Positions 20,501-48,229 of a stretch of DNA of 64,000 nucleotides are shown here, piece after piece (within the stretch, counting starts at the first letter, position 1; each line of letters begins with the position of its first letter). The stretch comes from Tubulanus polymorphus (Eukaryota; Animalia; Nemertea), in assembly GCF_964204645.1 (NCBI RefSeq), contig NC_134031.1:7750001-7814000 (forward strand), written 5' to 3'. A program made the position numbers and the translations under genes. The notes under the pieces were generated by a model. That model had not been told where the DNA came from, searched no databases, and saw only the letters and a program-made list of their open reading frames with translations.

Positions 20501-20949
20501 TGACTCCAGCAGGCATTTATTACTGATTGATATGATGTCAAGTGTTAAAATCGATAAGGAATAAATAAATATGTTATATTTTATTTCATCTCGGTAAAAT
20601 ACGTCATCTCGGTAATAAGGATGACCGCCGAGCGGGTAGATTAAAGCATACGGAGATAGGATCGTTTCCAGCCTTCCTGTATAGTATAGTTAAACGACGG
20701 GCGCGCGGGTATGACTGCAGTTTAGGTGTCCCTAATGGTTATGTACCTAACCTTACCATTCCATATGAAAAAAGACCGGGTCGGGAAGAAAAGTGTCAAA
20801 CATACTTTTGAAACTGCAGTTTCTCCACCTAACGTTTCCAAGACTTTGTCAACATTTTTAACAATCCCCGGATATTCAATGTTCATATATCGCTTTTGCT
20901 CTATCGGAACAGATAGCCGTTCCTGCTGTTGTTGTCTATCTTGTTCCAT
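8338..20949 (-). CDS. GTF3C5: General transcription factor 3C polypeptide 5 (TFIIIC63), coding exons 1-7: 20806-20949, 15543-15735, 13873-14023, ~12935-13008, 11099-11241, 9955-10162, 8338-8513; remaining exons lie left of the window
   Basis: Spliced translation contains IEYPGIVKNVDK.LETLGG, MELKWRPKDVYC, GLLDFQY, LYLPPQFFSR, MFEKRPIWSK, SYFMCTGPWRMMWIRHGYDPRKDPSAKIYQTIDFR and KRSAFHY, all resembling Tau95/GTF3C5. GT-AG boundaries and phases are consistent; the exon 4 donor is uncertain. Confidence 0.93.
8648..9799 (-). mobile_element. Non-autonomous Helentron (HINE/DINE-1-like) with internal ~155-bp tandem repeats, copy 1
   Basis: Minus strand: TTTTAGCCCACTTGGGACTTTAGTCCCAGCGGGCTA hairpin, (CCGT)n microsatellite, four CAACGCCCCCTGGTG repeat units, 3' subTIR CCCAAGTGGGC, terminal ...CTAGTTTT. 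Confidence 0.8.
9955..10162 (-). CDS. GTF3C5: GTF3C5 coding exon 6
   Basis: MFEKRPIWSK...GPWRMMWIRHGYDPRKDP...QTIDFRFRQ, ttccag/gtatgt boundaries. Confidence 0.95.
11099..11241 (-). CDS. GTF3C5: GTF3C5 coding exon 5
   Basis: ttgcag|RHKRSHYTQLV...VERAKA|gtaagt. Confidence 0.8.
11934..12111. mobile_element. Tc1/pogo-type MITE
   Basis: TA-CAGTGTAACTCGCTTAATT ... AATTAAGTGAGTTGTACTG-TA. Confidence 0.7.
12935..13008 (-). CDS. GTF3C5: GTF3C5 coding exon 4 (donor position uncertain)
   Basis: CDTPSQYMYRPEPK resembles the LD.P.DY.YRP motif; acceptor phase fits exon 3. Confidence 0.75.
13873..14023 (-). CDS. GTF3C5: GTF3C5 coding exon 3
   Basis: LLDFQYMPM...LYLPPQFFSR, AG/GT flanked. Confidence 0.9.
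14046..14790 (-). mobile_element. HINE copy 2 (internally deleted)
   Basis: Same ends and repeat units as 8648-9799. Confidence 0.78.
15543..15735 (-). CDS. GTF3C5: GTF3C5 coding exon 2
   Basis: tttag|TYRSPSQRMELKWRPKDVYC...YRYQ G|gtaaaa, 193 nt. Confidence 0.9.
17735..18587. mobile_element. Cluster of GGTCATCCTTATTACCGAGATGACG-TIR MITEs (complete copy ~18190-18587 plus two partial arms)
   Basis: Long inverted arms; GGATTCGAA repeated on both flanks; another copy at 20218-20626. Confidence 0.72.
18606..19620 (-). mobile_element. HINE copy 3 (three repeat units); further fragments at ~10290, 11360-11900, 12110-12480, 57400-57660, 62600-63150
   Basis: Near-identical to 8648-9799 including both termini. 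Confidence 0.8.
20218..20626. mobile_element. MITE nested in the TIR element
   Basis: GGTCATCCTTATTACCGAGATGACG ... CGTCATCTCGGTAATAAGGATGACC; absent from the sister copy at ~39390. Confidence 0.8.
20806..20949 (-). CDS. GTF3C5: GTF3C5 coding exon 1
   Basis: MEQDRQQQQERLSVPIEQKRYMNIEYPGIVKNVDKVLETLGGETAVSK, then GTATGT donor, phase 0. Confidence 0.88.
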
Positions 20950-23448: not shown

Positions 23449-26190
23449 TTATATAACAGGTTCCCGTTCCAGCCTAATGATACAAAAATGAGTTGTTCCG
23501 TCGTTGCGAAGGAACACGTGAGCTCCTCCTCCGAGTAGTACTCCTCCGCTACAATAAGCGTCAGGATTCAGACCCTGGTATTGAGTTCCCACGTATGGTT
23601 TGAGTCGGTCGTAATGAACTGTTTTAGGGACGTTGTTGGGCACGTCCTGTATTTCATATACGGTTTCTGAGTGTCTCTGTAAGATGGTGTACGGTCCGGT
23701 CCACCTCAACTAAAACTTCCGGGAGGAATCGCAGCCCGTTATCTTCGGCTGATACAGCCAGACAGGATCTTGGGCCTCATAGGGTTTTCCGTATCGCCGT
23801 TGGTCGTGGAGATTCTTCTGACGAAGAGTATTCTTTGCTAAAGCTTTCCGGGCATCACGGTGCGCCGTCTCCATTCTTTTCCGAAGCTGACTGACGTACT
23901 CGGTGGCGGACGGATAGTTGTCTTTAGGTGGAAGACCAACTACGAGATCTACAGGGTGATCCACCTCCCGTAGCAGCATCAGATAGTTCGGAGACGCTTC
24001 GGCCGTGTTATGGCGGGCCGCGCGATAAGCCATAGCGGCAAAAGGTAACTGTTAATCCCAGTCGAAAGGATCGTCGACGGACATCAGAGATAACATCGAT
24101 ATCAGGCTGCGGTTAAAACGCTCGACCATCCCATCACTATAGGGCCTGTATGGAGTAGTACGGGTTTGTTTGATACCGAGGAGAGTGCAGACTTCTTTGA
24201 AATGTTTGGATTGAAAATTCGAACCCTGATCGGTGTGAAGCTCACGAGGTACGCCAAAACGGCTGAAAAATTCCGTCACTAGTTTGTTAGCTACCGTCTC
24301 GGCGTCCATGTTGGGAATAGCGTAGCATTCAACCCATTTGGTAAAATAGTCCGTAGCAACGACGACGTAGATGTTGCCGGCTGTGGTCTCTTGACGGGGG
24401 CCCATAATATCGACGGCTATACGCTCCATGGGTGCTCCTACGTTGTAGATCTGAAGTTCAGCCTGAAATTTCATCGCTGGGGATTTCTTCCGAGGACAGA
24501 GCTCACATTGTTGCACCCATAACTCAATAGCTTCCCTCAATCCAGGCCAATAGTACCTATGTTGCAACTTGAGAGAGTTTTCTCGATCCCCTGGTGTCCC
24601 CCAGTCCGAGCTGAATGGTGTTGGTAAAAAATAGTACGGCGAAACTTCGGCGGGACAATCAGCTGAGAAAATCCACCCTCCGATCTACACTCCCTGAACA
24701 GAATACCGTCGTTGAACGAAATGAGTTCCCACTGAGCCCAATATCGTTTGGCGTTTTGTCGGAGACGTCTCGCCAAGGTGGCTTGGGGTTGCCGGCCATC
24801 AGCCCGTCGATCGCCCACTCCAGGTCTTCATCAGTTCGCTGGGCTCTCTTGAGCTCTTCCAAGTCCCATGTCTCATCCAGTTGAGATTCAACGGTGCCCT
24901 CTTCGATCACGTGTATGTACTCTATCTTATCACACTGCTTACACGGCATCCTCGATGCCGTGTAACCCGTCAGCGTTACCGTGTATTACTCCTGGACGGT
25001 GTTCAATCTGGAAGTGATAAGTCGACAAGGCTTCCAGCCATTGAGCAATTTGCCCTTCGGGTTCCTTCAGATTCATCAGCCAACGAGGGGCGCTGTGATC
25101 GATACCGATGCGAAAGTTCTGTCCATAGAGGTAGTGCTTGAAATGCTTCACAAATAACACGACAGCTAGTAAGTAGTTCGCGCCGAGTCACGCAGTAGTT
25201 TTGTTCCGCGCGGTTAAGCGTACGACTTCCAAACGCGATCGGTCGCACCTCGTTCTCATGTATCTGACTCAATACTCCACCGATAGCAAAGGCACTAGCG
25301 TCGCAATCCAATACATACGGGTCCGTGACATTCGGGTAGGCTAAAATAGGTGCGTCGGTCAACTTCTCCTTCAGCTCCCGGAAAGCTTGTTCCTGCTCAT
25401 CGCCCCAAATAAAATCCTGGTCTTTAGCCGTGAGTCTATGTAGAGCTACCTGCGATCTTCGCGAAACCGGCGACGAATTTCCTGTAGTAAGTGACAAGGC
25501 CCAAGAAACTACGAACCTCCTTGACGTTTTTAGGCGTTAGCCAATCCCGTATACACTGGATCTTGGACAGGTCCGTCTGTATGCCCTCGTGACTCGCCAC
25601 GTGCCCGAGAAAAACTACCGACTGGAAAAGCGAGCACTTGCGGGGTTTAAGCTTGAGTCCGGCTTCTTCCAATTTACTGAAGATTAGCCGTTCGACCATC
25701 TCTTTCACCGAGCTACTAAACACCGACACGTCATCGAGGTACATTAAGCTTATCTCCCATTGGAGGCCAGTTAGTACCATTTCCATCAATCTTTCGAAAG
25801 TTCCCGGAGCTCCGGACATACCGAAAGGAAGTACAGTGAATTCCCCCAACCCACTCTGAGTTATAAAGGCGGACTTCTGCTTCGCATCATCGCTCAACGC
25901 AACCTGCCAATACCCGCAATTAAGATTAAGGGTGCTGAACCAGACGGCTCCTCCGAGACATTCCAGCGAGCGATTGACATTCCAGCGCCATGCTTTCGAT
26001 GGTCGTAATCTCATTAAGCCGACGATAGTCCACACAGAAGCGAGTGCTTCCGTCTTTCTTGGTTACCAATACGATCGGGAACGACCAAGGGGAGCGGGAC
26101 CTCGTGATCAAACCGCGGCGATGCATGTCTTCAATCAAATTTTCTGTCTCTTTACGCTAGGTTAAGGAAGGAAGTCTCGGCGCCTGTCGA
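23449..26190 (-). pseudogene. Ty3/Gypsy pol (RT, RNase H, integrase, GPY/F), many frameshifts and stops
   Basis: SPWSFPIVLVTKKDGSTRFCVDYRRLN, LPFGMSGAPGTFER, YLDD, LDCDASAFAIGGVLSQ, GHQG, IAVDIMGP, TDYFTKW, HTDQGSNF, GMVERFNR, WTGPY. Confidence 0.95.
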
Positions 26191-26355
26191 ATTGGTAAAA
26201 TATTATAAAACATGGCGGATTATCGAAGTGGGAACAACGTATCGCTGGTGAATTATTATATATTTATCCATTATCAAAGCCCATATTCAAGTGCCTGTGG
26301 TTCCATCCATCCATGGCAAGAAAAAAGACCGGGTCGGGAAAAGTGTCAAACATAC

Positions 26356-26472
26356 TTTTGAAACTGCAGTTTCTCCACCCAACGTTTCCAAGGCTTTGTC
26401 AACATTTTTAACAATCCCCGGATATTCAATGCTCATATATCGCTTTTTCTCTATCGGAACAGATAGCCGTTC
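26356..26472 (-). pseudogene. 5'-truncated duplicate of GTF3C5 exon 1 with intact donor and ~45 bp of intron
   Basis: ERLSVPIEKKRYMSIEYPGIVKNVDKALETLGGETAVSK|gtatgt; 3 amino-acid differences from the 20.8 kb copy; native ATG missing. Confidence 0.9.
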
Positions 26473-26730
26473 AGGACTGTATACTCCTCGCTCAATCGCT
26501 TCCTCACTCCCCATCGACTGTCAGTGGAGTGGGCCCGAAACCCCGTGGCGTTGGACCGAGAACTCTCCCGACAGTAGTTACCCCACCAACAGTTATTTTG
26601 CTGTTACTTGGTCCGAAGAGTCTCAAGTCGGATGTTTTTAGCCGTGGGCGGTGTGACTTTGGTATAGCTTCGTACGCGTCTCTTGAGAGTATAGTGCGGC
26701 AGGCGCCAGTATCTACCAAGAGGGCCGTCT
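26473..26730 (-). pseudogene. Gypsy aspartic protease fragment
   Basis: LLVDTGACRTILS motif. Confidence 0.8.
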
Positions 26731-27101
26731 GAACTTGTCCTATCTCGGTAATTATGTAAAGTCCATTAACGACGATTTTATCTGGGTGGCAATTAGCAAT
26801 TCGGACGATGCTTGTTGGAGGGGGCTACTCAATTTGATGAACGTCTCAGCGAAGCTGGTCTCAAGATTAAACCTGAAAAGTGTAGTTTTTTTCCGAAAGT
26901 CAGTCATATATCTCGGACACAAGCTGTCTGCTGCAGGTATCGAGCCGGATCCTGCGAAGATTCATGCAGTGAAAGACTGGAGTAGACCGACGACGGTGGC
27001 AGAAGCTAGGAAATTCCTAGGATTCTCTAGCTATTACCGAAAATTTATCAAGTCTATGCAAGAATAGCTGCACCATTAACTACTCTTCTCTCGGGGATAT
27101 C

Positions 27102-27491
27102 TGTAACCGGCTGGTTGTTGTATCGGCAGGCTGGCTGGGGAACTAGCATTTACACCAGCGGTACAGGATTCCATCCATCAGGAACAACAAGGCAGTTAAA
27201 CCTTATATGTACAATCTTTTTTGCATCCCGGAATGAGAATGATTATCATAGCTTTACATAGTCTTTATATACAGAATCATGAGTATAATGTGAGAACTAG
27301 GTGTCAGACAAGTTGTAGACATCAGGACTCACAAACAAACACCTAGTGACATGTTTGAGAGACATTAATTAATTATCGATGAGCACTGACTATAGCTAAT
27401 TATCGTGAAAACATGTTGAGTAATGTCACATGTTGATTACGACCTTAAAGCACATATTGACACTATAGTCATAAGTTATATTATATTATTA

Positions 27492-27586
<95 letters not shown>

Positions 27587-27639
27587 GTTATTGTTATTGT
27601 TATTGTTTTTTGTTATTGATATTGTTATTGTTATTGTTA

Positions 27640-27680
<41 letters not shown>

Positions 27681-27878
27681 GTTATCGTTATCGTTATCGT
27701 TATCGTTATCGTTATCGTTATCGTTATCGTTATCGTTATCGTTATCGTTATCGTTATCGTTATCGTTATCGTTATCGTTATCGTTATCGTTATCGTTATC
27801 GTTATCGTTATCGTTATCGTTATCGTTATCGTTATCGTTATCGTTATCGTTATCGTTATCGTTATCGTTATCGTTATC

Positions 27879-27929
<51 letters not shown>

Positions 27930-28019
27930 ATGTAGTAGAGCTATGAAATATATGAACTGTTCGATGTGACATTGTAGATCTATATGATTATGAAATATGC
28001 AAATTATATCAGGGTGACA
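27102..28019. mobile_element. Solo LTR containing an expanded microsatellite
   Basis: TGTAACC...GGGTGACA termini, 4-bp TSD TATC (27098-27101 and 28020-28023); the interrupted pol continues across the site. Confidence 0.85.
27474..27927. repeat. Compound microsatellite (TTA)n-(GTTATT)n-(GTTATC)~33-(TTA)n
   Basis: Directly visible. Confidence 0.98.
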
Positions 28020-28677
28020 TATCTAATCAAAAAGGGAAAAGAAAGATCGCAGAACAGAGCATGGCAATCGAGTGGTCAGGTGAATACGAATATAACAAGG
28101 CTTTTCTATACTTGAAGGAATGCCTCACTTCAACACCGGTACTAGGGTTTGCTGGCTATAAAAGTCGTCCCTTCGAACTGCACACGGATTGGTCTCATGA
28201 TGGTCTCGGAGCTCTGCTATATCAAGAGGATCTGGATGGTAGGTGTCGGGTGATGGCATACGCGAGTCGTGGGCTTAACTCATCGGAGAGAAAATATCCA
28301 ACGCATAAGCTGTAATTTTGGGCCTTAAAGTGGGCGGTTACCGAAAAATTTCATGATTACCTGTATGGTGGACCATGCCTCGTCAAGACGGATAACAATC
28401 CATTGACGTATTGTAAGACTTTGGTACACTTTTAAGAAAAAAATTAACTATTTATTTTTTATTATATTCACTAATCCAAAAATAATTGCACAGCACAACT
28501 GTAATTAAAGAGAAAATTGTATGTTCAGCAGCAAAGTTAGTGATATTTCCAGCAGATTTTAAAACAAAACCAACAATTGATGCTATAACTCCAGTAATTG
28601 GAAAAGTGGGGTTTCAGATCAGAGGTCGAGAGGTCGACACATCACTCATCACCACAAATAATTTTTCCCCACAATAA

Positions 28678-29025
28678 ATGGGAGATAGAAAAGCATTCTT
28701 AGCAACAATAAATAACAGAATAAAACCAGCAAAAAAACAATTTGAAATAAAAAAGTTAGTTGATGTTACAAAAGAAAGTGAACATGAGATATTAAAATTA
28801 GAAAAGGTAAAACTAAATATGGAGATAAAATATCAGCAAATTTAAGTTACTTTAATGTTAGTACATGGCGAGAATTTAAAGTATTTTTACCTGATAAATG
28901 GGTTTCATTGAGTACAGAGGAATTAAAAGATTTAGAAGGATTTATAGGATTTTTTAGAAGGATTTAAAATAATCTATCATGGAAAAAATGAAGCAGGGCA
29001 TCATGATTTAGAAATTGTTGATTAA
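28678..29025 (+). pseudogene. Small viral ORF, frameshifted, unknown function (possible OB-fold)
   Basis: TAAATG start; MGDRKAFLAT...ILKLEKV/KTKYGDKISA...FKVFLPDKWVSLSTEELKDL...YHGK. Confidence 0.5.
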
Positions 29026-29201
29026 TTAAAAAAATAGAAAAATGAAATAATAAAAAAAATAAGAAAATAGAAATAATGAATATCAAGAATCCGAAATGAC
29101 TTATCTGGACAATTCAATTGCTCCACGTAGATAGACAAAAGTAGTGAGATATTTAATTAATTAAAAATAAAATTATTTTGTTTGCTTTTTTCTGCTTTTT
29201 T

Positions 29202-29576
29202 CTAAAATATCACTCCATTTTTTATTATGAATTTTGGAATTTCAGAAGTATTTTCATTTTTAGTAGCAGTAGTTTCAGAATTATTAATATCATAAATTTT
29301 ATTTGATTTCTTATACCAACTACACCCAATCAAAATGAATACAACTTCAAATCCAGTTTTAAAATATAAATATTTATCAAATATTCTCTTATTAGAAGTA
29401 GTAGAAATAACAATATTTTCACCATTTTCATTAACATTTTTATTATTTATTTTTTCTTTTATAGCTTTTTTATATTCTAGTGATCTAATTCCTAATTGCC
29501 GAGACCAGTCAATTTGTTTCTGAGTTCTCGGTTTTTTCTTCACAGTTAATTCCTTCGCTTCCTCCACCTCGCTCAT
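29202..29576 (-). CDS. Viral hypothetical protein with basic N-terminus and one hydrophobic segment
   Basis: 124-aa ORF, TAAATG start directly after the upstream stop. Confidence 0.6.
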   Translation of the reverse strand: MSEVEEAKELTVKKKPRTQKQIDWSRQLGIRSLEYKKAIKEKINNKNVNENGENIVISTTSNKRIFDKYLYFKTGFEVVFILIGCSWYKKSNKIYDINNSETTATKNENTSEIPKFIIKNGVIF

Positions 29577-29579
29577 TTA

Positions 29580-30113
29580 TTATAGAAAAATTTTACTTTC
29601 AATATTTGAAAATGTTATAACTCCAGTTGATAAAAATGTCATAAATCCACCTAATTGAAATGATAAATATCCAATCCATTTATTTAATTCAGCCATAACT
29701 AAATAATCATTTTTTAAATCGGAATATAATTTATTTTCATCTTGAATTGGTAGCATATAATTACATAATTTACTATAACCTATTACTACATTTTCTGATA
29801 CCGCATCATTAATTCTAGCTGTTCTCGCAGTTTCATAAATCTTAAATAATCTAATAATTTCATCTGATTTCATTGTATCTAATTCATTATAAGTTAAATT
29901 TTTACTAATAAAATTTTTACATTTCCCAGATGCAATTAATATTTCTAAGTGATGTTTGCAATAAAGATAATATTCATAATTATTATTTGTTGTAACATCA
30001 TTAAAAGCACCATCATCTGGAGTTAATTTTGTTTCTGTTATTCCTAAATCATCTAAAGTTTTTTCAATTGCAACATCACTATTTTTATATTTCATTTTCT
30101 TTTCACCACCCAT
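29580..30113 (-). CDS. Viral hypothetical protein with hydrophobic C-terminus
   Basis: Intact 177-aa ORF in very AT-rich DNA, TATATAAATG start. Confidence 0.7.
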   Translation of the reverse strand: MGGEKKMKYKNSDVAIEKTLDDLGITETKLTPDDGAFNDVTTNNNYEYYLYCKHHLEILIASGKCKNFISKNLTYNELDTMKSDEIIRLFKIYETARTARINDAVSENVVIGYSKLCNYMLPIQDENKLYSDLKNDYLVMAELNKWIGYLSFQLGGFMTFLSTGVITFSNIESKIFL

Positions 30114-30344
30114 TTATATAACAAAAAATTTATTTGTTTTGTTGCAACTAGAATTGAACTAAAATTTAACTAGAATGTAACTAAAAATATACTAGATTAA
30201 CAAGCTAGTTAAAATATTGTTGTTTCTATTTATTTCTTGTTTAATTTTATTTGATTTTTGTTTCAACTACTAACAACTAGAATTCAACTAGAATGTAACT
30301 AAAAATATACTAGATTAACAATCTAGTTGAATTTGAATAAATTC

Positions 30345-30939
30345 TTATTTAAATGGGTGTTTTAATCGAAATAGTAATTTTGATCTTTTATTATTTTTCA
30401 ATTTATCCATATATTCATTATGTAAATCATGTGGAATAACATTATTTTCCTCAAGTGCATTTTTCATCGATTTTCTATCTTTATTGTAGAATAAAACTAG
30501 AAATCTTATAATCTCCCTAAAATCTTTAACAATTGGATTATTTTTTTGATTTAAAACCCATGATGTTATGCCAAAATGTCTCCCAGAGAAAGCTAAATAG
30601 CACAACTCACTTTTTCTAACTTTTGAATCATGTAAATTAGCACAATCATCTATGATGAATAATATATTTGATCCTTTATAAATATCAATTGCTATTTTAA
30701 TACAATTATCTAAATTTTCTTTAACTGTTTTAGGATCTAATACAATAAATTTATTATTTCTAGTAATATTTCTATCATAAGTTTGATTAAATTCATACGT
30801 TGGACAAAATAATACTATATTATCAAAATAGTTTTTATAAACAGTTTCTAATAAATTTAATATAAAATAAGTTTTTCCACGATTTGTTACGCCTGAAATT
30901 AACATATTATGAGGTTCAAATATAAAATTCCTTATTCAT
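30345..30939 (-). pseudogene. A32/FtsK-like DNA packaging ATPase (frameshift near the start)
   Basis: Walker A ISGVTNRGKT, Walker B LFIIDDC, SGRHFGI...NQ Arg-finger/sensor motif. Confidence 0.9.
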
Positions 30940-32062
30940 TTATATATTTTTAATTTTCCTTGATAATATCCATTCATTAAATTTATCTGGCCATCCAACC
31001 CATTTTACTAAAGGATATTTTTTTCTATTAACAGTTTTTGTTTTTAGTACCTTTTCAATTTTATATTCATGTTCTAGATTTTCAGTAGTTAAACTTAATT
31101 CTTCTTCATAAAAATACCTATCAACTTCTTCACCATTTAAATCTTCTAATTTATAGACATATGGTTTTGTTGTTATTACCTCTTTTATTTTATATATTTC
31201 TCTAGTAAAATTACGATCGTATCCTTTGTCAAATATCTTTCTATACTTAGAAATTCTAACATTTTGACTCTTTAAATTTAGGTTCACCAAAATCATCTAC
31301 AAGAAATGCCCCATACAAATTATTCCAAACAATTTCAGCATTTTCAGGGTTTCTAGCAACAATAGGTTTCATTCCAATAGAAGAATGATAAGAATAGTTA
31401 TATCCTTCTATCAATTTTGGTAAAACATCCATTTAAAAGTATTATTTGCTGTAAAATATTTCCACATTGTTGTTCTTAATGTTCTATTAAATCGTTCAAC
31501 AACTGCTGCTTTTTTATCCGATTTTGTTGAAAAGTATTGAATGTTATGATTATCTAAGAGTTCATGAACAAGTGAATTATCAAATTCTTTTCCATCATCA
31601 AATTGTATTTTTTCTGGTTTTAGTTTATCATCCGAAAGAAATTTTCTTAAAACTAATGATGTTTGTGCAGCATCTTTTCTATAAATTGGGAAGCTCCATA
31701 CATAACGACTTAAAATATCAATTATATTCAATATCCACCAATAATCATCATCATCTTTCTTAACATTTTTCATATCAATTAAATCTCCTTGCCACTGTTG
31801 ATCTACATAACTTACCATAGTTTTACGAGTTCTATATTTTCTAAAAAAATTTTTATGTGTTGTATATATTGGTAAGTCTAACATAAATTCACTTATATCT
31901 TTATATTTAACTAAATTTTGTGGGATTATCTTATCTAATTTATCTTGTTTTACTTGACGCCATATATCTTTTACAGAAGAATAAGCAACCGAACTCTCAG
32001 GATTATAATATAATTTTCTTAAATATTACTCTTTAGTATTAGGAGTTTTTTTTATTCCCCAT
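30940..32062 (-). pseudogene. Polinton-type retroviral-like integrase with C-terminal chromodomain (frameshifts)
   Basis: LYYNPES, YTTHK, QWQGDLIDM, IIDILSRY, IQFDDGKEF, AVVERFNRTL, NVRISK..IFDKGY..NFTREIY, chromodomain YKIEKVL...LVKWVGWPDKFNEWI. Confidence 0.93.
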
Positions 32063-32092
32063 TTATATATCGTTAATTTTAACTTAATATTT

Positions 32093-33335
32093 CTAATATT
32101 GAATACTATATAATTGAGAATTTATAATATTTAATTGCGCGTCAGATATAATATAAATGTCCATTTTGAAATTTTTGATCCCTTTTTTCTTTTTCATGAA
32201 TAATTGGATTCCATCGTTTGTGTTCTGTAGTTTTTTTACCAGAACCATGTAATGAATTATCCTCTGTTGTTCTAAAATCTAACCATAATGCGTATTTATT
32301 GCCGGTATAATAATCAATTTGATTAATATTACAATTTTCAGATGATTTTACTTTTTCATTCATAAAATGTTTTCTAATTTCTGGCCACTGATCTATCATT
32401 CTCATTCCTTGACAAAATATTTTATTTGCTATACCTTCAATAGTTATTTCTACCTTTGATATTTCAGGATTATAATAATTATCAACATTCATTGCACCAT
32501 TAGAATATGTTGCAATGGTAAAAAATATTAATATACCTTTAATAGATTCTTAATTCTTGGGAAGTTAATATTCTCATTAATTATTTCATCATTTGCATTA
32601 ATAGTTACAGTTTTAAATTTATCAATGTAATCATATGATAATGAAAATCCTTGATTGTATTGAGTTTGAATTATGCTTGAAATATTTTTATCAGTTACTG
32701 TATCATATTCTAAACATTTTGTAACCCATATCTTTAACTACACTTGATAATACAATTTCATTAACAGGAGCAAATGTTATCTCGAATATAATATCTTCTT
32801 GAATTGCGTATTTATATAAAGGTGCATTATTATTTATCAATTCAAAGTCTAATGGAATTTTATATTTGCTTCCATTAATCTTTTCCATCAAATTATCTGT
32901 AGCATTAGTTATTATTGCATTATTAGCTTCTGATCTTAATTTATTATGGTTTTCTGATTGGATGCCTTGAAAAATCATATTATTTCTATTTTCTTTAGTT
33001 AACCATAAATCTTTATAATGCATAAATAAATTATAATCATCTAATGAAAAAACTGTTTCTGGTCCAATCTTTATAGTCAATTTTTTAATCAAATATCTTC
33101 CAACATTATCAACAACATAATTATTATCATGGCCAGTTACTTTTATATAAACTGACAAATAAATACTATTTGGAACATAAAAAGTATTTTGATTTAATCT
33201 CGGGATTCTAACATATAAAGTTTCATCATGATTAATATTAGAAGGATCATGAGTAGTTATATGATGAGATCTCTCTGCTTTAATAGCATTAGATATTCTA
33301 GAATTCTTAGAAGGATTTATATAACTACCACTCAT
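32093..33335 (-). pseudogene. Putative major capsid protein (fragmented, ~410 codons)
   Basis: Beta-rich ORF pieces 32703-33335 and 32142-32492 joined across frameshifts, ending ISDAQLNIINSQLYSIQY*; size and position typical of a double jelly-roll MCP; fold not verified. Confidence 0.6.
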
Positions 33336-34845
33336 TTACTTGACAAAAAAATTAATTATTTATTTTTATCATATTCACTAACCCAAAAATAATAGCACTA
33401 ACAATTGTAATTAAAAATAAAATAATATGTTCAGCAGCAAAACTAAGAATATTTCCAGCAGAATTTAATACAAAACCAACAATTGGTGCTATAACTCCGG
33501 GTTAAGCGGCAGCAGATTTTTAAGATAGTTCCCATATATATTTTGCTAATTTTTTTAAACCATCCTTAACTTTATCTTGTATGAATTATTATTTGGAGGT
33601 GGTTTATCCGGTTTATTGGGAGTTAGTGTAGATTTCAGTGAATTTGATATGGCTAAACATATTGTTGTGAATACCATAGTTACAGCTGTTAGAATTGAAA
33701 GAATTGTGATACCTTCTAATTCAAATAATAATTTTATTCTATCTTTCAATGATATTTCAGAATTTGGTTTATCAACAAATCTTTAAAAATAACTTTTAAT
33801 CTATTAATATTATAATATATAATTATATTAATATCATTAATATAATAATAATTTAATTTCTTCTTTCCGAAATTCTATGTTATATTCTAAATCATCTTTT
33901 TCTTTTTCTTAATATGCATTTCTTTTTTTTAAATTCAATTTCTTCAATAACTTTATTATCGCTATCTTATTTTAATTGTTCTATTTCTTTAATCTTATCA
34001 GTTCTATCTTTTTCTAAAGTTCTAATTTTAAAATCTCATACTTTTGTCATGCGCAAATTTATCAGCTATATTACTAATACTAATAATTTCTCTAATTGCT
34101 TTATCAGAAAATATATTTAAATCTTCTAATTGTTGATCTGTTACATCAAGTAATCCATTTGGTAAAATTTTTTCAATTGGAACTTTATTTGATTTAAGTT
34201 TACTAGTTTTGGAAGTTATATTCTGTTCAGAAGTTGTTTCTGTTTCTAAATTATCATTGATTGTTTCAAATAATCTATCAATTCTTTCTTTAAATACTCT
34301 TTTATTTTGATTTACTTCTTCTTGTGTTACATTTTCTATTTCATTACTTTTACTTATTCTTTTAATTCTAGATGGTTCTAAATTACTCAAAGTTGATTCT
34401 GCTAATATTTTATTTTGATTTTTATAAGTGATATTAATATGATAATCATCTTTCAAATGATAATAATATTCACCATCTAAAAATTGCAATTCTCTTGCTA
34501 AATATCTGGCACCTGTATCATTTATATTATACCCAGATTTTTCAAATATAGGTTTAGAATTATTTATATATTCATTATATTCTAAATATTCATTATATTC
34601 TAAATTCTGTCTTACTAAATCTGGATTTTCATTTTCAATGTTTATTCTTCGTCCAGCTCTTCTATCAAAATCGCCTGTTGATATTATATTATCATTAAAA
34701 TCACTATCTGCTAAATTATTATTATATATTCTGGCTCATTACCATCATTAAAACTTGTTTCATGAAAATCAGGCGGTTGTTCTTCAGTTATGCCAGGTTC
34801 ATCAAAAGTATCCATTCCAATATCTTCTCCACCTTCTACATCCAT
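33336..34845 (-). pseudogene. Large viral ORF: acidic N-terminus, coiled coil, C-terminal hydrophobic/amphipathic helices (fragmented)
   Basis: Starts MDVEGGEDIGMDTFDE..ETSF; ends RIKLLFELEGITILSILTAVTMVF...PGVIAPIVGFVLNSAGNILSFAAEHIILFLITIV. Confidence 0.65.
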
Positions 34846-35098
34846 TTATATAATAAAAAAGATAAAATTTAAAATATAATATTCCCCCTATTACAATTCC
34901 TATACAAGTTATAGCTAATTTAGTATTTTCATGTGTTTTATTATCAATATCACTTCTAATTATTTCATGCTGAATATTATCAGTTTTTATATTTTCTGAT
35001 GTATTGTAATCTTTTATTTTAGAATCATTATTTAATTTAATATTCTTAGTTTTAGTTTCAGTTGATTGAATATGTTTTTTAATTTTTTCACCTTCCAT
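34802..35098 (-). CDS. Small viral protein with one TM helix
   Basis: LAITCIGIVIGGILYF segment. Confidence 0.5.
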   Translation of the reverse strand: MEGEKIKKHIQSTETKTKNIKLNNDSKIKDYNTSENIKTDNIQHEIIRSDIDNKTHENTKLAITCIGIVIGGILYFKFYLFYYINGCRRWRRYWNGYF

Positions 35099-36110
35099 TA
35101 ATTTTGGAGCAGTAATTATCTTTTTTATTTATATCATTTAATCCAAATGAATTATGTATTGTTGCAGTTTTAATTAGATTATTAAAACCAATTATATTCC
35201 CCATTTTTAATATTAAATCATCAGAAATAATTAATAAATTAGGACCTATACAATAATTTAATCTTACATAAGATTTATCTAAATAATTTTGATATCTTAC
35301 TATATTGTCTGGAATTGATCTATTTTTATCATTATGAATTGAATCTTCAAATAATTGTTTTTGTGTATCAAATGATGTATTTAAATTTCCAATTATAGGG
35401 GAGCTTGTTTCAACCTGTGATCCTAACATACAAATCAAATATATTTTAATAGATTGATTTATTCGTTGTATACCTATTTTTGTAAAACCTTCACTATTTT
35501 CTATAATAAAATAAACCCAACCATTATTATTTTCTTGTTTTAAATTATCATAAAATTTCGGCAATTTATTTAAATTTAATTTTTTTAAACTAAATCAATA
35601 TTTTCTATTTTACCATAACCTAATTTATTATTATACATATTATAAAAACTATAATATGGTATGGGAAGTGTGCAATGTTGTAAAATATTTTCAGGACAAG
35701 GAATTGATCTTATTATTCCAATTTTTGTTCGAAAATCAGAATTATTTATATTTATATTAAATTCATCACGAACTTTATAAAACTTTGATAAATCAATATT
35801 ATTATCTAATTCTTTAAAATATCTAGATCCTGGTAAAGGACATTCTAATTCATTTAATATAAATCTAATTTGATAATAAGTATGAAATCGAAAAAAACTT
35901 TAATTTATATTTTGAATTATTTGAATGATCGTTCCAACTATTTCCACATCCTGTTGTTGCACAATAAACTGCAAAATTTAATTGGTTCTGCCAATACTTC
36001 ATTTTGATAACCATTGCTTTTCATCTTTCAATTTTTTTTTAATTATTGAAGTATTTTGTTGATAATTGCTGTGAAATCAAATTTGGGGGGATTTTTTTTT
36101 TATTTGGTTG
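35088..36110 (-). pseudogene. Viral hypothetical protein (YWQNQLNFAVYCATTGCG motif), fragmented and 5'-truncated
   Basis: YWQNQLNFAVYCATTGCG, FFRFHTYYQIRFILNELECPLPG, GFTKIGIQRINQSIKIYLICMLGSQVET. Confidence 0.65.
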
Positions 36111-38289
36111 GTAAATTTCGTTTGATTTTCTGATTGAGTGTCCCTTAGAGACCCACCACGGGTTTGATTTTGAAATCGGAAATCGAAGTACAGATATAGT
36201 TGTGTGACCGGCGGTCGAGTTTACATATTTTTTTGTTTAAATCGAAGTACATGATTGGGAAATTCGGTTCCGGTTCATTCAAACAATCTTCCAACCAGTC
36301 TGAACCGGCAAGCGACTGATTGGGGTGAATTTTTCTGGCTGCCTAATTTAATACATCGAAATTTTGGAAATAGTTATATTACAAGGTTGAAGATCATTTG
36401 TCCATTTTTATATTTTTTTGGTCGGTTTCTGTGTGTAAACAGTCCGATAATCTAGTTTTTTTTCTGGTAGATATTGATATAGAAAGTCCTCTAAGTTGAT
36501 TGTCCCGCGTGTTGACTAGATAGAAAGGAAGCACATTTCAAAACGCAAATTTTCCAGATGAGAGTAGGGTCCTTTGGTATCCGAAGTGTAGTTTATGACA
36601 TCGACGGTGCAGCTCCGATGAGGATGGGTTTCTCCGTCAAGGGGTGCGCGATCGGTACTTCACATCTGGTGCTGAGTTTGCCTAAAAGTAAAAGTTTTTA
36701 CACGGAGAGCAGTTTTGTGTTTCTTATATACAGTGCATGGTTAGGTCTGTGGGTGCGTCGCAATCGAAGGGACAGTACTATGTGCATTGATAGACCGTCA
36801 GTAAGAAAGGCGGCACAGGCACGTGAATATTGAATACATATTTGTACACTAACGTATATACAGTCTTGATCGGGTTTTATTTACAGTCACAATTATGTTT
36901 TTGGTATTTTTCAATGAGACCGACGTCAAGAGGCAACTTTCCAGTCATCATTGCGCGCAGATAGACTGAGCTTGCTATCCTGAAGCCAAAAAAGGAGGCA
37001 GCTTTCCAGCTATCGCGGCAATTAGACCGAGTTACAGTCAAAACATCAGAAACAGTAAACTAATGAACACGTGGTGATATAAAACAAAAGTGGTCAGACA
37101 GTTCTATGCGTATTGATAGACCGTCATCCCGGTTCGATCTAAATCAGAACATACCTCAAGTGTCAAAGTCGGGTATGTAGGTGTATGGCGTTGGGTTTAA
37201 TTAATAGACATCGACTCTGTCGAAAATATTGTGTGTATTTATGTTAGCAAATGGGCCCAAACGAACAAATACAACTTGAACTCATTTGTATTTTGTTCAT
37301 GCTGATGATAATGATTCTTGCCATGGATTTCGAGAATTATATTTTCATTTACTTTTAGATTCTTAATTCGTAGCGCTTAATTAGTACCGGTATCACGTAA
37401 TTGAACAATAACTTCCCGGCATGGCGTTTCGTTGCTATTTGCTAAAGCTTATTCTAGAACGCTTCGCAGCCACGGAAGAAAAAGCCACGGAAGTTAGGAA
37501 TGATCCAAGGTCTGACATCTAAACTTAGGCTTGCGGTTAGTCCTTGCGGTTTCCATCCTGGATATTTATAAAAATAGTTGAATAGTTGAAGTGCCCTCGA
37601 AAATTGGGGGGAAGGTGTACGAAGGAATTATCCGACATCTGGCAATCAAAATAGACCTAAGCTACTAGAATGGTATTTGACAAATGATTAGAACGCCGAA
37701 AACCATATCCTGTACTTTTTATTTTTTTCTCTAAAATTTTTCAGTGGAAACTTTTCTTGAATAAAAATAAAAAAAGGCCGGCCTGATGGAAATATGTCAA
37801 ATTTCATACTTTTTTTGTGGAAAGAATAAAAATGAAATGCTGCCTGCCGGGTCACTTTTCGTCATACAGTTTCCCTTAATAAATGAGAAACAAGGTATAA
37901 TTTGTTTGGCCTCAGACGGGAAAGGGTTAATTGATCTTTCTGAAATGGACGTTGTGATTTGAAAATTCTCGGAGTCATCCCACGTGCCACTGTAGTTCCT
38001 CTTTCTTCCAGAAGGGTGGGCAGCGATCGCTGATTCTGGCTAGCGCTCTGGACATCTCCTTTTCAGGGTAGGTTGCGCTGATGCGATTTAATTTTCTATC
38101 GTCTATTTTTGATGCATTTTAAACTGTTTTTGAGAATTGCAACATATCTTCTACATTGAATGGGGCTGAATCATAGAAAAAATACACCATTAAGTTCAAC
38201 TTGAATTGATTGTTCCTCGTGCAACTGAATCATCAATCCACTAAAAAAAGTAAAATAAAACACGATCACTGTTTCAGTGTTTGCAATGC

Positions 38290-39647: not shown

Positions 39648-40385
39648 CACAGGGGTTTGGCGATGGGTTTGGATTTTATTTCGGGGTTGTTGATAATCTC
39701 TCGAGAATGGCGCTTAATATGAACTGCGAATAAATTCAAAATATCACGGAAATATCTTGTGTTTGTATTGTTTATTTATCCGCTTTAAAGTTCCGATAAA
39801 AAATCATTATCACACGGTCGTGACGCTATATATAAAATCACAAGGGATGCAACGCCAATTTTCAGCCAGAAAGTAGGGACATTCACGTGACAGTCTGATG
39901 ATGTCATCACATTTAAAACTTCAACATGAAAAGTTAACATATTCACTGACCGATATCAATTGTCAGATTATGATTCATATGAAGTTAATAGCTTATAAAG
40001 AATAAATTATGATCAAATTTATAATTCATAGACAAAAAATGCATTTGAATGTAAGTTATCTCAAATATTTTTCGTATCATAGTTTCCATCTTAGATGCTT
40101 CAGGTTCACGTCAGTCAAATAAGAAGTGTTAAGTCACGTGGCTGTCCCAACTTTCTGGCTGGCGCGACTTGAAGGCGTTTCATCCCTTGTGATTTTATAT
40201 AGTAAAGCGTTGCGACAATGATGACCAATTGTTTATCGGAACTTTATAGCAGATAAATAAACAATATAAACACAAGGTATTTTCCGTGATATTTTGGATT
40301 TATTCGCAGTTCATATTTAGCGCCATTCTCACGAGATTATCAACTACCCCAAAATAAAATCCAAGCCCATCGCCAAACCCCTGTG
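39648..40385. mobile_element. Foldback-type MITE with ~250-bp inverted arms
   Basis: CACAGGGGTTTGGCGATGGG ... CCCATCGCCAAACCCCTGTG; TSD ACTGCAAG/ACCGCAAG. Confidence 0.85.
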
Positions 40386-43300
40386 ACCGCAAGTCAAACA
40401 AAATAAAGCATTTACTAAAAATTGCATATCAAACATATTCAAAAACTGACAAACAGGTGCTGCCATCTATGGATATCATAAGGCACTAAAATCAAAGTCT
40501 CAAAAACTTTAGAAAAAGGCTCTGAAGGCGAGCTCAAACGCTTAGTACAAAATATAACTACTCGGAAAGAATGGCAAATGTTATAGATAATATATGTGAG
40601 TTGTAAAATGTCTTACCAAAGCATATGACCGTCTAAAACTTCTAAAAAGATGTAGGCCTACGCTAAAATACTAAAAGAAACGATTGATCCAAATTTCCAC
40701 AAAGCCAAACCATCACCACTTCCGCTCACCAGGTGGCGCCACACCACCACCCAGGCCAAACACTAAAACAAGGGAAGTATTTGCCGCAACATACCAGCCC
40801 CCCAAATGGGCAAGGTCCTATGACATCCTTACATAACGGGTCAAATGCTTTGACGCCTCTAAACATACAGCAAATTATGACTTATTTCACTTAACACAAC
40901 CATATAAATGCAACTCAAAACACTAAAAAATCTCCTTAAGGGGGGGTAGAAACCTTGCATCGATTATACTAAACTAGATCACTACATAACTACTAAAATA
41001 CAGTATAGACTACATGTAGGGCCTATAAAGAATTTAAAAAGAAACTGCACTTGATTTAATAGGTAGACCGATTGTCCTAAAACGTAAGTTATTGCAGCAA
41101 CATAGTTAAAATGACAGATTAAATGCTAAGTACGAGTGTACAAAGTCTTACGGCTAGTCTGCTTCTACTAATACACATAGCTTGGCTACAGGTCTACGAA
41201 ATTCACTAACAGCTCGAACATAACCTTTAGAGTCGGGCTCAACACTGACTACCCTACCGAGGGCCCACGAGTTACGCACCCTTGAATCCATAATAAGGAC
41301 AACGTCCCCAACTACGACATTTTGACGCAACCGAGACTATTTTGACCGAACTTGAAGCAGCGCCATATATTCCTCACACGATCTTTTCCAGAACAACGAT
41401 GCCTAGTATTGAACCTGACGCCATCTATGCTTCGCATACCCATCTTCTTTCGTGAAAACGCCAATTGGAAATCGAATTTTGGATTCAGGAGCAGAAGATG
41501 ATTTGGAGTGATGGGTCTTGGATCATTAGGGTTGTTCATGTCCATTTCGTACAGCGGACGATTGTTGAGTATTGACTCCGCTTCACAAAACACTGTGCTA
41601 AGCATTTCGTTGTTCAGGGCTTTTGATTGTCCGCGCAAAAAGTGGAACACAATTTTGCGTACCAATCTGATCATTCGTTCCCAGATGCCGCCGAAATGTG
41701 AGGCTAGCAGAGGGTTAAAGCTCCACTCAAAATGCTTTTCGAGGCAAGACCGTGATATCATCCTTATCCAGACTCTCCAACGCATGCTTCATGTCGGCAC
41801 TGGCGCAAACTAGGTTGGTGCCTTTATCAGACCGCATTTTTTTGATTGCCCCACGCCTAGCTATGAAGCACCTTATATCATTGAAACATGAATCCATATC
41901 TAACGAATTCGCGACTTCCAGGTGAACGGCCCTGCTGGCCATACACGTAAAAACGACGCCATAGCGCTTCGCAACGCTGCGCCCGGCTTTTACATCGAAG
42001 GGGCCGAAGTAATCCACGCCGGTGTTTGAGAACGGTAGTTTGTCAGTCGCTAAACGCTCTTTCGGTAAATCGGCCATCTTTTGGTCGACCTTATCGTCAC
42101 GATATTTCCGGCGATCGACGCACTCGTTATTATCGATTTGATAAAGCCGGGGCAATGAGTAATCCGGAACCTTTGTCCCACGTATCGCAGAATAGAATTC
42201 TTGCCCATGTGCCCTACGGCTCTGTGCGCGTCTTCCGATATGAGCAACGATATGCGAGAGGTTTTTGATAATACAATTTGGTGTTTCTGGTCGAAAGGCC
42301 CTATTGCGCGTTCAAGGCGAACACCGACCCGAATCACATCATCGTTCAGGAATACGTCGAGACCTTGCAGCTGGCTAGCTCGTTTTACCCGTGCATCGGT
42401 TTTCAGCTGCTCGTGCTCGGAGCTGAAGGTCTTCTGTTGCGAATGCTTTACTAGGAGCAACTCTGCCTCCTCTATGACGGATCGATTTAAGAACACGGTT
42501 GTCGCTCCGGCGGGTTTCGTCGGGCCAAGTTTTCTTGGCCGAACAGTAGGAGCCACGCCACACCACGCTTCAGATGCCACCAATCTGAGTAATGTTCAAT
42601 GAGCTTATCAATAGGCTGCGTAATACAAACGACCAAAGTAGCAGCGACGGGTCTTTTTAATTCACGACTGTCGACTAGACTTCGATCCACGACGTCGAGC
42701 GGCCATTCTGATCAGTCTTTGATGAGGAATTCTGGTCCGTTAAACCAGATCTCATCCTTTACTGGGGACATCTCATCCTTTACTGGGGACTTGCTTGGTT
42801 GCAAACCTCTTGAGACGAAGTCTGCTGGCTCTTATGACGTTTACTCGGTTGGTCACGAATGTTTGGTATCTCGCCGTATCATTTGCGATACATCTTAGGA
42901 CACTCATGCTGTCCGTCCAGTAGAAGACTTCGTCGAACTCGATATCTAGTTCTCTGGCTACCATGCTGTGCAAGCGAACTGCAAGAGTCACAGCGATGAG
43001 CTCCATGCGTGGTTATCTTCTTTAGATGCGCAACCCTAGATTTCGAGATTACCAAGCTACACGTGACGTTGCCGGATGGGTCAGCTACTCACAAATAACA
43101 AACAACACCATGCCCCGTTTCACTTGCGTCGGTGAAGTAGTGGAGTTGGTACTTTTGGCGCGTCTGATCGTTGAGGGGCGAGGCATCGTGGAATCGAGAC
43201 TAGTTCTAGAGTGGTAATTCTGTCGGCCTAGGCTTCGAATCGCCTTTGTTGGACTCGGGTGATTGCTTCATCCCATCTGATGCTGTCTCTGTACAACTCT

Positions 43301-46941: not shown

Positions 46942-48229
46942 ATTGGTCTTAAACAAGAAAATTAATTTTAGAAAATTATTTGACGCCTGCGAAAAAAATG
47001 TATAATTTCTGGGCTAAGCTCATGTGGAATTGCAAATTTGAAATCGACGTTTTAAAAAATTTGGGGAATAATGAGATTTGGCGATTGGGTAGATGATACA
47101 GCGGGTCTTCGACTCTAGTAGTGGTTTAAATTTTTTTATTGAAAATTCTCAATAATTGATCGCGAACTTGCGACCGACTTCATTTACTTATGCCTCTAAG
47201 CTGGTCTGCAACTTCATTGCCTCCATGGTTGAAGAACGAGCTCTTCTGATGTCTGCTTCATCATGTCTTCGAGCATATCGTGTGGCCTAGCCAGCCGGCC
47301 CGGGCCACGGGTTTGGCTGTCACTCGATATCCTAGAGTCTTGAGTCTGGGTGGGTTGAAGTAGACATTGTCATTTAAAATAACATGCTTATGTTGTTCTG
47401 TATGAATTACCCGTGTGTCATGTATGTTGCATTAATTTATTTTAAAATTTGTATTTATTGAATTTGGGAATTTTATCCCGAAATTTCAATGTAATAAGGA
47501 TCAATAAAGAATTGAATTGAGTTGTCACCTAATACACATGCCATCAGAGGACGTGGAGCCGTATATGATAGCTATGCTATTATAAATTGCTAATCTCACG
47601 AAACCTGCATACTCCTGATATCAAACATATTTTCTAAAACGTTTGAATATTGAAATTATATGTTTACACATTTTCATATTGACCGCTTGTAGCCGCTGAT
47701 GAAATTCACGCCGGCCCTACACACATCGTAGATAGCTTCGTCATTCCACCGGCATGCCCACGTCAGGGTCTGACTTTTATATCAGACTTCCAAATCGTGT
47801 ATACATCCGCCCTTTAACCGAATAATCCGATTTACTTATCATTTCTATTTATGCCTGCCGCTTCTGATATAATCATACATCCTTTACTATTACAATACGT
47901 CTTCTTATGATATTCATTGCAATATAACATTTTGACGTTCAAATATAGGTCATTATATAATCAAAGGAAGCCATTCTACATCTATGTCAATAATATTTTG
48001 CCAGATAGCTTATTTGTGTACACATAGACCTGTGACGTTTTGCACATCGATTTACGGCTGTCGTTTGTAAAATGACGCTGAATGGTTAACATTGTTTAGG
48101 TTTCATAATGGTAACGTTTTATAAGGCGTCAAAAAATATGTTTAATAATTTTATTTGATTGATTGTAGGATCATCAAGACGAGGTCAGAACTGTGAATCT
48201 GCTTTAAACACTAAAATAGGAACGACAAA

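Follow-up and report, generated by a model that had tools for sequence, protein, structure and literature searches.

A decayed viral fragment with a predicted Polinton-3-type capsid in a likely animal genome, from a clade whose genes share a start motif resembling poxvirus late promoters

Known virophages rely on the late promoter of their helper, and what switches on the capsid-encoding Polintons of animals is an open question. Polinton-like viruses (PLVs) occur together with insect poxviruses (PMC11296320). The capsid of the Nematostella element Polinton-3_NV (P3_NV) has been grouped with PLV capsids, outside Maverick/adintovirus groups 1 and 2, since 2014 (PMC4028283, PMC4642659, PMC10120064), and Polinton-3_NV and three Polinton-N1 elements of Nematostella are listed as protease-less. 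Here we describe an endogenous virus of the Polinton kind within a stretch of 64,000 nucleotides (the window). Very probably it is a remnant, decayed and rearranged, of a small integrating DNA virus with a predicted capsid of the Nematostella Polinton-3 (Polinton-like-virus) type. Its clade carries a candidate promoter of poxvirus late type throughout, a feature that bears directly on the question of activation.

The viral fragment (28430..36120, no strand assigned) is an AT-rich, decayed block of 7.7 kb without termini. Its GC content lies between 0.21 and 0.26 in every 1 kb bin from 29001 to 36000; the first bin to the right reaches 0.39, and the Gypsy remnant that adjoins the block left of 28400 has 0.38-0.51. 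The block is colinear with L001, an 11.5 kb metagenome contig, at a nucleotide identity of 74-80%; together with the GC profile and matches to Pox_A32 and rve, this bears out the AT-rich viral block of the original prediction. The roughly nine abutting intronless ORFs claimed there correspond to nine pieces in the comparison with L001 (seven minus-strand gene remnants and two fragments at the left end), but the ORFs are mostly not intact: the capsid, integrase, ATPase, QNQLNF and tail genes each contain stops or are spread over several frames. Besides these stops, deletions of at least 10 bases, one inversion and a partial second copy are marks of decay. The window copy is a dead fragment, and dN/dS ratios of 0.16-0.32 against L001 in five gene stretches indicate that its genes had been under purifying selection. 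Both ends are truncated, as had been proposed: the window copy displays neither terminal inverted repeats nor a convincing target-site duplication (6-bp type tested), and with both ends cut the intact element may differ. In the rest of the window, outside the block, the viral proteins compared found no match.

The QNQLNF gene remnant (34802..36008, minus strand; tblastn 67-76% to L001) has lost its first ~80 codons and changes frame several times. On the same strand lie the remnant of the amphipathic-tail gene (33346..34845; matched to its L001 homolog), with stops and frame changes, the major capsid protein gene (32093..33335; four frame segments) and the gene for an rve (DDE) integrase with a C-terminal chromodomain (30940..32062; three frame segments; homolog in L001). 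The A32-type packaging ATPase gene (30333..30939, minus strand; 77% to L001) has a frame break near its start and a stop near its end. Two further minus-strand ORFs of 177 aa (29580..30113; 64% to L001) and 124 aa (29202..29576; 48% to L001) are homologs of conserved genes of 206-225 aa and 126-177 aa, respectively, which are also present in L003, L008 and L014. At the left end, comparison with L001 identified the remnant of a 114-aa gene (28678..29022, plus strand) that contains stops and is inverted relative to the main block; in L001 this gene sits upstream of the penton candidate. The end of the amphipathic-tail gene recurs there in a second, diverged copy (28437..28600, minus strand), 87% identical to 33345-33498.

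A profile scan of 17 window ORFs matched the ATPase to Pox_A32 (E 5e-11) and the integrase to rve (E 1.3e-8) and Chromo (E 1.4e-4, below the curated cut-off). With the Walker A, Walker B and GRH motifs and the three acidic DDE residues visible in the window translations, these matches substantiate the proposed pairing of a packaging ATPase with a DDE integrase carrying a chromodomain, an integrase that is intact in L001, L003 and L008. PolB and a cysteine protease had been reported as not visible, and neither PolB nor an adenain-type protease was matched in the 17 window ORFs; the protease also had no match in 29 ORFs from relatives that are all incomplete elements. At the contig end of L005, a relative whose capsid is 49% identical to that of the window, a polymerase fragment displays B-family motifs by eye and has no Pfam, PHROG, PDB or phage match. 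The single jelly-roll penton gene is deleted from the window copy. The L001 penton candidate (L001:565-1329) resembles N1-type pentons by eye, and the penton candidates gave no PDB match and a weak DUF5901 match in two of five. L001 and L006 encode a deoxynucleoside kinase. A PulA_N1 match on a 144-aa ORF of L001 was set aside as likely compositional. Scanning viral_contigs with the capsid, ATPase and QNQLNF proteins revealed no relative.

The capsid places the lineage. P0002, an intact homolog 73% identical to the window capsid (over the N-terminal half), yielded a model (pLDDT 81) with a double jelly-roll that Foldseek matched to iridovirus and PBCV-1 capsids (E 1e-14; TM 0.54-0.62). The assignment of 32093-33335 as major capsid, for which this fold had been expected, is thereby upheld through the model of its homolog. 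A count by eye on Fig S3 of PMC4028283 gives ~73 of 173 residues (~42%) shared without gaps between the capsid and P3_NV, and the C-terminal motifs of both agree, again by eye. This alignment assigns the capsid to the Polinton-3 type of Nematostella. In a tree built from metagenome relatives without named references, the window's clade of 8 sequences forms a separate branch (support 0.999) nested in a 32-sequence group (support 0.958).

The original prediction called the element adintovirus-like. An ordinary Maverick of group 1 or 2 (adintovirus) that lost polymerase and protease by truncation would share the rve-chromodomain integrase, the ATPase and a SLATT gene, for which L001 has a weak match (E 0.001). 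However, the capsid matches P3_NV, which is published outside groups 1 and 2; among the best 50 BFVD matches of the capsid model a single one, at rank 22 and 10% identity, is named as adintovirus; and the relatives' ORFs, from incomplete contigs, contain no protease match. On the evidence at hand the element is not an adintovirus-type Maverick, and we consider an ordinary group 1 or 2 Maverick very improbable. As the P3_NV-type capsid has been published outside these groups, the lineage is already noted in print. It is therefore known but little described, where the earlier notion had been a possibly poorly described lineage. The clade may already figure in the fasta supplement of PMC4028283 or in the HMM sets of two 2026 preprints.

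The accessory genes, putatively a morphogenesis module as earlier proposed, are linked to the capsid gene and, as had been claimed, have no canonical counterpart among named families. The QNQLNF protein comprises 442 aa in L001 and ends in a C-terminal hydrophobic segment. Its family is large (1,321 homologs matched), occurs in clusters of 20-105 members, many of them truncated, on contigs of up to 8.9 Mb, and follows the pattern of multi-copy endogenous families. We found no Pfam, PHROG, Atlas or PDB-sequence match. A confident model of a homolog (pLDDT 83) had no structural match either, with a best BFVD E of 0.12 and a best VIA Z of 4.6 over 93 residues, none of 48,161 chains reaching at least 5. 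Judged from this model the protein looks new, though a new fold is not thereby proven. An 'archaellin' label on two homologs was set aside because the model lends it no support. The amphipathic-tail protein (485 aa in L001) has three hydrophobic segments and, close to its C-terminus, an amphipathic helix. Small membrane proteins had also been proposed; the 124- and 177-aa window ORFs contain no 19-residue hydropathy segment of at least 1.6, and of their L001 homologs the 130-aa protein has one such segment and the 206-aa protein none, which weakens this detail of the earlier account.

The window also contains a Jagunal gene (E 1e-55) along with retrotransposon remnants, and the host genome is likely that of an animal. 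A virus of a protist or other non-animal host, present here as an accidental germ-line insertion or an assembly chimera, would fit with environmental contigs being the closest relatives, with the missing termini and target-site duplication, and with a left edge next to a truncated Gypsy RNase H that does not continue on the right. Yet stops, deletions, inversion and second partial copy are the decay expected in a genome, sea anemone genomes are known to contain this capsid type, and the QNQLNF clusters with their truncated members sit on contigs of up to 8.9 Mb. We therefore regard a non-animal origin as improbable. In a search of sequencing runs, four of the ten rows listed, all from one study, contain 0.14-0.28 of the words, and no RNA run is among the rows listed. 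A scan of genome_contigs found two short contigs in bacterial MAG bins, which probably reflect contamination during binning rather than bacterial hosts.

The genes of the clade share a fixed start context, a T-run at -14 to -12 followed by TAA-ATG. It is present at 6/6 main-block genes: on the minus strand at the capsid gene (33333..33349, a candidate late-type promoter), the amphipathic-tail gene (34843..34859), the integrase gene (32060..32076), the ATPase gene (30937..30953), the 177-aa gene (30111..30127) and the 124-aa gene (29574..29590). The 114-aa remnant carries it on the plus strand (28664..28680). Across the clade 51 of 55 starts have it; orthologous starts are not independent, and the cleanest count is 14/14 different genes in L001. 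TAA precedes ATG at 33/35 near-clade and 18/20 mid-clade starts. AT-rich DNA favours words such as TAA-ATG. Elsewhere in the same upstream 40 nt the frequency is 8% (near-clade) and 4% (mid-clade), and in controls TAA preceded 30 of 449 non-gene first-ATGs and 53 of 2,058 host-flank ATGs. T occupies positions -14, -13 and -12 in 38, 44 and 48 of the 55 starts (background 0.45). As a clade-wide feature the motif looks new. Every gene class carries it, integrase and kinase included, and no early class was seen.

In vaccinia late promoters TAAAT(G) overlaps the start codon, and ten bases upstream there is a T (PMC11980589). The motif fits this layout within one base, its strongest T lying at -12 and the vaccinia position being read as -13. 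This resemblance suggests transcription by a helper virus. The mimivirus late motif is not enriched (3/49 versus 4.2 in shuffles), the mimivirus early motif was found once, and the poxvirus early terminator occurs five times in 12 L001 ORFs, which is uninformative. None of 19 starts of distant relatives, including those most like P3_NV, has the motif, and reliance on a helper should therefore not be generalised to the type as a whole. Nor did the analysis encounter a transcript, a helper or a complete element.

The same element might instead be autonomous in the nucleus, relying on host RNA polymerase II, with TAA-ATG as a lineage-specific core promoter or translation signal and perhaps an element-encoded factor. 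Integration into nuclear DNA by a chromodomain integrase would suit such a life, TSV-type PLVs replicate in the nucleus, many start contexts contain TATAAA or AATAAA, and expression of coral Polinton core genes has been reported (PMC11131425). Poly(A) signals or stop-start coupling, however, do not explain the T-run or the head-to-head starts, nine of ten of which have the motif, with the paired ATGs 19-64 nt apart; only one of the 14 L001 starts follows the stop codon of a gene. Moreover, a TATA box overlapping the start codon would place the transcript start inside the gene, and animal ribosomes favour a purine at -3, the opposite of the motif's T. We see nuclear autonomy as possible but not probable.

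Helper-driven transcription of the lineage's genes appears to us to fall just short of an even chance. A large cytoplasmic helper virus would supply the RNA polymerase that reads the poxvirus-style late promoters, and the element, silent in the nucleus, would be expressed late in the factory of the co-infecting virus, as virophages are; these two steps are suggested by the motif. Going by their families, the integrase would insert the viral genome into the host chromosome, a protein-primed polymerase, seen as a fragment in L005, would copy it, and the ATPase would fill an icosahedral capsid with the DNA. Speculatively, the amphipathic-tail and QNQLNF proteins might be membrane-associated virion proteins for entry that replace the protease-matured system of Mavericks. 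Taken as a whole, a Polinton-3-type fragment in a likely animal genome whose genes a large cytoplasmic helper transcribes seems to us as apt to be right as wrong. More tentatively, the clade could represent virophages that exploit a pox-like cytoplasmic virus infecting aquatic invertebrates, with all genes on a poxvirus-type late promoter, copies that wake only upon helper infection, and a virion in which a conserved, membrane-anchored protein of 440 aa with an undescribed fold takes the place of the protease-matured Maverick system. To our knowledge, a poxvirus-like helper of aquatic invertebrates is known only by inference. If true, virophage-style parasitism, perhaps with host protection, would extend to aquatic invertebrates and would point to undescribed pox-like viruses there. 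The abundant, capsid-linked QNQLNF family is a second, smaller lead.

Among known systems, the yeast pGKL virus-like elements (PMC6211774) are linear pPolB elements whose TAAAN initiator gives 5' poly(A) leaders by slippage; they differ in encoding their own RNA polymerase, which was not seen in the window element or the available parts of its relatives, and in having neither capsid nor integrase. Like virophages and helper-dependent PLVs (mavirus, Sputnik, Gezel-14T and the entomopoxvirus-associated PLVs), the element has a small integrating genome with no RNA polymerase in the parts seen, and its putative promoter resembles in shape the promoter of a large cytoplasmic virus; it differs in that no helper was found. 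The motif is poxvirus-like, and the main text on the entomopoxvirus PLVs says nothing about promoters (PMC11296320). Mavericks/Polintons of groups 1 and 2 (Polintoviricetes; PMC8502044, PMC11071296) share the rve integrase with C-terminal chromodomain, the A32 ATPase, the double jelly-roll capsid and an animal host; the element differs in having a capsid of another lineage and no protease seen, and PLA2X, GasderminX and other named adintovirus genes gave no match by Pfam or fold search. Closest are Polinton-3_NV and Polinton-N1_NV of Nematostella vectensis, with a capsid of the same length (412 vs 415 aa) and the ungapped ~42% identity over 173 residues counted by eye, an ATPase, no listed protease and, for Polinton-N1_NV, the penton likeness of L001 judged by eye. 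From these the window's clade is set apart as a separate, very AT-rich branch, by the deoxynucleoside kinase of its relatives L001 and L006, and by TAA-ATG on nearly every gene, which is absent from the P3_NV-like loci L016 and L017.

The AT-rich block at 28430..36120 is genuinely viral, a defunct piece of an animal-integrating Polinton-like virus (PLV) whose type is known but neglected. GC content is 0.21-0.26 across bins 29001-36000 of the block, against 0.38-0.51 in the Gypsy remnant left of 28400 and 0.39 in the adjoining right bin. A Pfam scan of 17 window ORFs identified a Pox_A32 ATPase (30345-30935, E 5e-11) and an rve integrase (31411-32025, E 1.3e-8) as well as a chromodomain (30940-31296, E 1.4e-4, under the cut-off) and a weak Capsid_N match (32703-33335, E 0.001); the remaining ORFs gave no credible match. 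The original prediction of an AT-rich viral block carrying an ATPase and a chromodomain integrase was thus borne out. No terminal inverted repeats were found at the block, and the two 6-mers that could be paired across broad candidate ends as a target-site duplication are at chance level, neither lying at both edges. The fetched viral proteins matched nothing in the window outside the block.

We infer that the host is an animal because the block shares its window with a Jagunal gene, a DUF4371 ORF and remnants of reverse transcriptases and integrases. The Jagunal homolog (48215-48808, +, Pfam E 1e-55) is a single uninterrupted frame and represents a retrocopy or a gene without introns. The host flanks further contain a reverse transcriptase ORF (1-2034, -), the DUF4371 hAT-like transposase (2575-4978, +), two opposed decayed LTR-retrotransposon remnants with reverse transcriptase, RNase H and integrase (23700-27100) and a host-like exon piece between them, a BEL/Pao-like remnant recognised by eye (41315-42595, -) and self-complementary, foldback or MITE-like repeats (39648-40385, 20218-20626 and 18190-18587). 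A Gypsy RNase H remnant (27956-28413, +), directly downstream of a long ATT/ATC microsatellite (27480-27930), breaks off at the block's left edge, and its continuation was not found to the right of the block.

A query with the N-terminal half of the capsid returned 28 full-length homologs (46-73% identity), whose alignment yielded 24 loci in metagenome contigs, and the capsid profile matched 2,467 representatives at E <= 0.001. In one of these contigs, L001 (11,483 bp, GC 0.196), the gene order follows that of the main block, at 74-80% nucleotide identity: QNQLNF, amphipathic-tail gene, capsid, integrase, ATPase, 206-aa gene and 130-aa gene, the last two corresponding to ORFs of 177 and 124 aa in the block. 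The gap that separates the ATPase from the 177-aa gene does not align to L001 and contains, at 30126-30331, two direct repeats of 90 bp that are 86% identical. Further genes of L001 are a penton candidate, a weak SLATT match, small ORFs and a deoxynucleoside kinase (10340-10981, -). The relative L006 encodes such a kinase too (2895-3380, -), the matches having E values of 1e-31 to 2e-31; this enzyme would fit genome replication in cells that do not divide or outside the nucleus. In L003 and L008, which carry the same genes, the integrase-ATPase part is inverted. L005 terminates in a fragment in which B-family polymerase motifs are seen by eye and which gave no library match. Three relatives have variable ORFs (L003 5568-6083, L005 3289-4023, L006 1717-2448) that are related to one another and match HNH weakly; inserted at differing sites in the module, they possibly encode a homing endonuclease. 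On the distant contig L025, QNQLNF, capsid (31% identical to that of the window, E 4e-34) and a penton-like start are linked again, with a weak tail-gene match (E 0.002). The virus-family genes on L025 and L026, short contigs in bacterial MAG records, likely reflect binning contamination. No complete element was found among these relatives.

The window copy has decayed. Each of its genes for capsid, integrase, ATPase, QNQLNF and tail protein is spread over several frames or interrupted by stops, and QNQLNF lacks its first 80 codons. At the left end, an oppositely oriented piece aligns to L001 161-498 and continues at 2430-2526, so that the penton candidate is missing; beside it lies another copy of the tail-gene end, with 87% identity to the first. 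Sequencing error may account for some single-base breaks, but it does not explain the larger deletions and the inversion. Taken together with this damage, dN/dS values of 0.16-0.32 between block and L001 (five unbroken stretches) indicate genes that were under selection and later decayed.

The original prediction had placed the major capsid at 32093-33335, and a fold check on P0002, an intact homolog, confirmed this call. The P0002 model (pLDDT 81, pTM 0.83) gave 210 structural matches at E <= 0.001 and matched the capsids of iridovirus, PBCV-1, mavirus, Sputnik and PRD1 (best E 1e-14). Among the best 50 BFVD matches, identity was 8-14% throughout and one was a named adintovirus (rank 22, 10%). 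A poorly described lineage had also been proposed: the lineage is indeed neglected, but its capsid type is already published. Residues 19-191 of the window capsid align ungapped to 22-194 of the Nematostella Polinton-3 (P3_NV) capsid printed in Fig S3 of PMC4028283, with about 73/173 identical by hand count. Table S1 of that paper lists Polinton-3_NV as positive for capsid and ATPase, penton not found and protease absent, and three Polinton-N1 elements as protease-absent; the Nematostella capsids are placed there with PgVV. According to PMC4642659, the Nematostella elements are possibly chimeric, combining a PLV-type capsid with pDNAP and RVE integrase, and in PMC10120064 the sole metazoan capsids outside groups I and II are cnidarian. 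Of two 2026 preprints (10.64898/2026.06.19.733378 and 10.64898/2026.10.13.758929), one describes ATPases of Octocorallia, Hydrozoa and Bivalvia as nearest to Aquintoviruses and the other describes tandem polinton and PLV insertions in anemones. In a FastTree of 102 capsids (N-half columns of the window, midpoint root, only unnamed relatives as references, matches < 380 or > 460 aa left out), the window fell into an 8-member clade (support 0.999) nested in a 32-member group (0.958); L016 and L017, most P3_NV-like by eye, lay outside it.

Homologs of the QNQLNF protein number 1,321; ten clusters looked up had 1-105 members, many truncated, on contigs of up to 8.9 Mb. Its model, built from 115 sequences, is confident (pLDDT 83, pTM 0.78) and mainly helical; it contains a disordered linker, has a hydrophobic helix at the C-terminus and found no structural match in BFVD or VIA. 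An amphipathic helix accompanies three hydrophobic segments in the last 120 residues of the tail protein. Linkage and hydropathy may point to a virion-membrane role for both proteins.

Most likely, the virus would have inserted itself via its own rve integrase, been copied by a protein-primed polymerase and formed icosahedral particles with no maturation protease, as in the Nematostella type. How its genes were read may be reflected in the start context, a feature that the original prediction did not note. TAA directly precedes ATG at 6/6 remaining minus-strand starts of the block and at its one plus-strand start. For the window and 15 other loci, sorted into groups by the identity of their capsids, we scored the starts of those genes that homology or length marked as genuine. 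Left out were L002 (a near-duplicate of L003), L011, L015, L018-L024, L026, a small ORF of L008 and, for the split integrase of L001, its second piece. The motif was present at 33/35 near-clade, 18/20 mid-clade and 0/19 distant starts; elsewhere in the upstream 40 nt, TAA frequencies were 0.08, 0.04 and 0.07, respectively. As controls, first ATGs after a stop in non-gene frames carried it in 30/449 cases and host-flank ATGs in 53/2,058. T occupied positions -14, -13 and -12 in 38/55, 44/55 and 48/55 starts (background 0.45), and -12 in 9/19 starts of the distant group. L001 alone has TAA at 14/14 different genes, 13 of them with T at -12, and just one of its starts directly follows a gene's stop. 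Where genes start head to head (five pairs, ATGs 19-64 nt apart), 9/10 starts carry the motif, which argues against stop-start coupling or a poly(A) signal of the upstream gene. In the distant relatives L013, L014, L016, L017 and L025, the ATG is preceded by a different AT-rich sequence, often TATAT or AAAA, which could mean that another transcription system is used.

The promoter layout suggests that a helper virus provided the polymerase that read the genes, a cytoplasmic one of poxvirus-like kind; judged from the motif, we consider such transcription possible, if slightly less than evenly likely. Nuclear, host-driven transcription is a real rival to this reading. Mimivirus promoter motifs were not enriched at the starts. 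We found no report of a TAA-ATG or late-type promoter in a Polinton or PLV in the literature within reach, which included few subscription papers. Two features look new, the promoter signature specific to this clade and QNQLNF, a conserved protein that is uncharacterised; the capsid type is already known. PMC11980589 gives the vaccinia late promoter as TAAAT(G), which extends over the start codon; ten bases upstream, in a group of Ts, lies a conserved T. That T corresponds to -13 in our numbering if the motif-adjacent base counts as first. Sputnik and mavirus use late promoters of their helpers, and a helper reading is proposed likewise for PLVs found with entomopoxviruses. Yeast virus-like elements have a related initiator, which according to PMC6211774 is read by their own polymerase.
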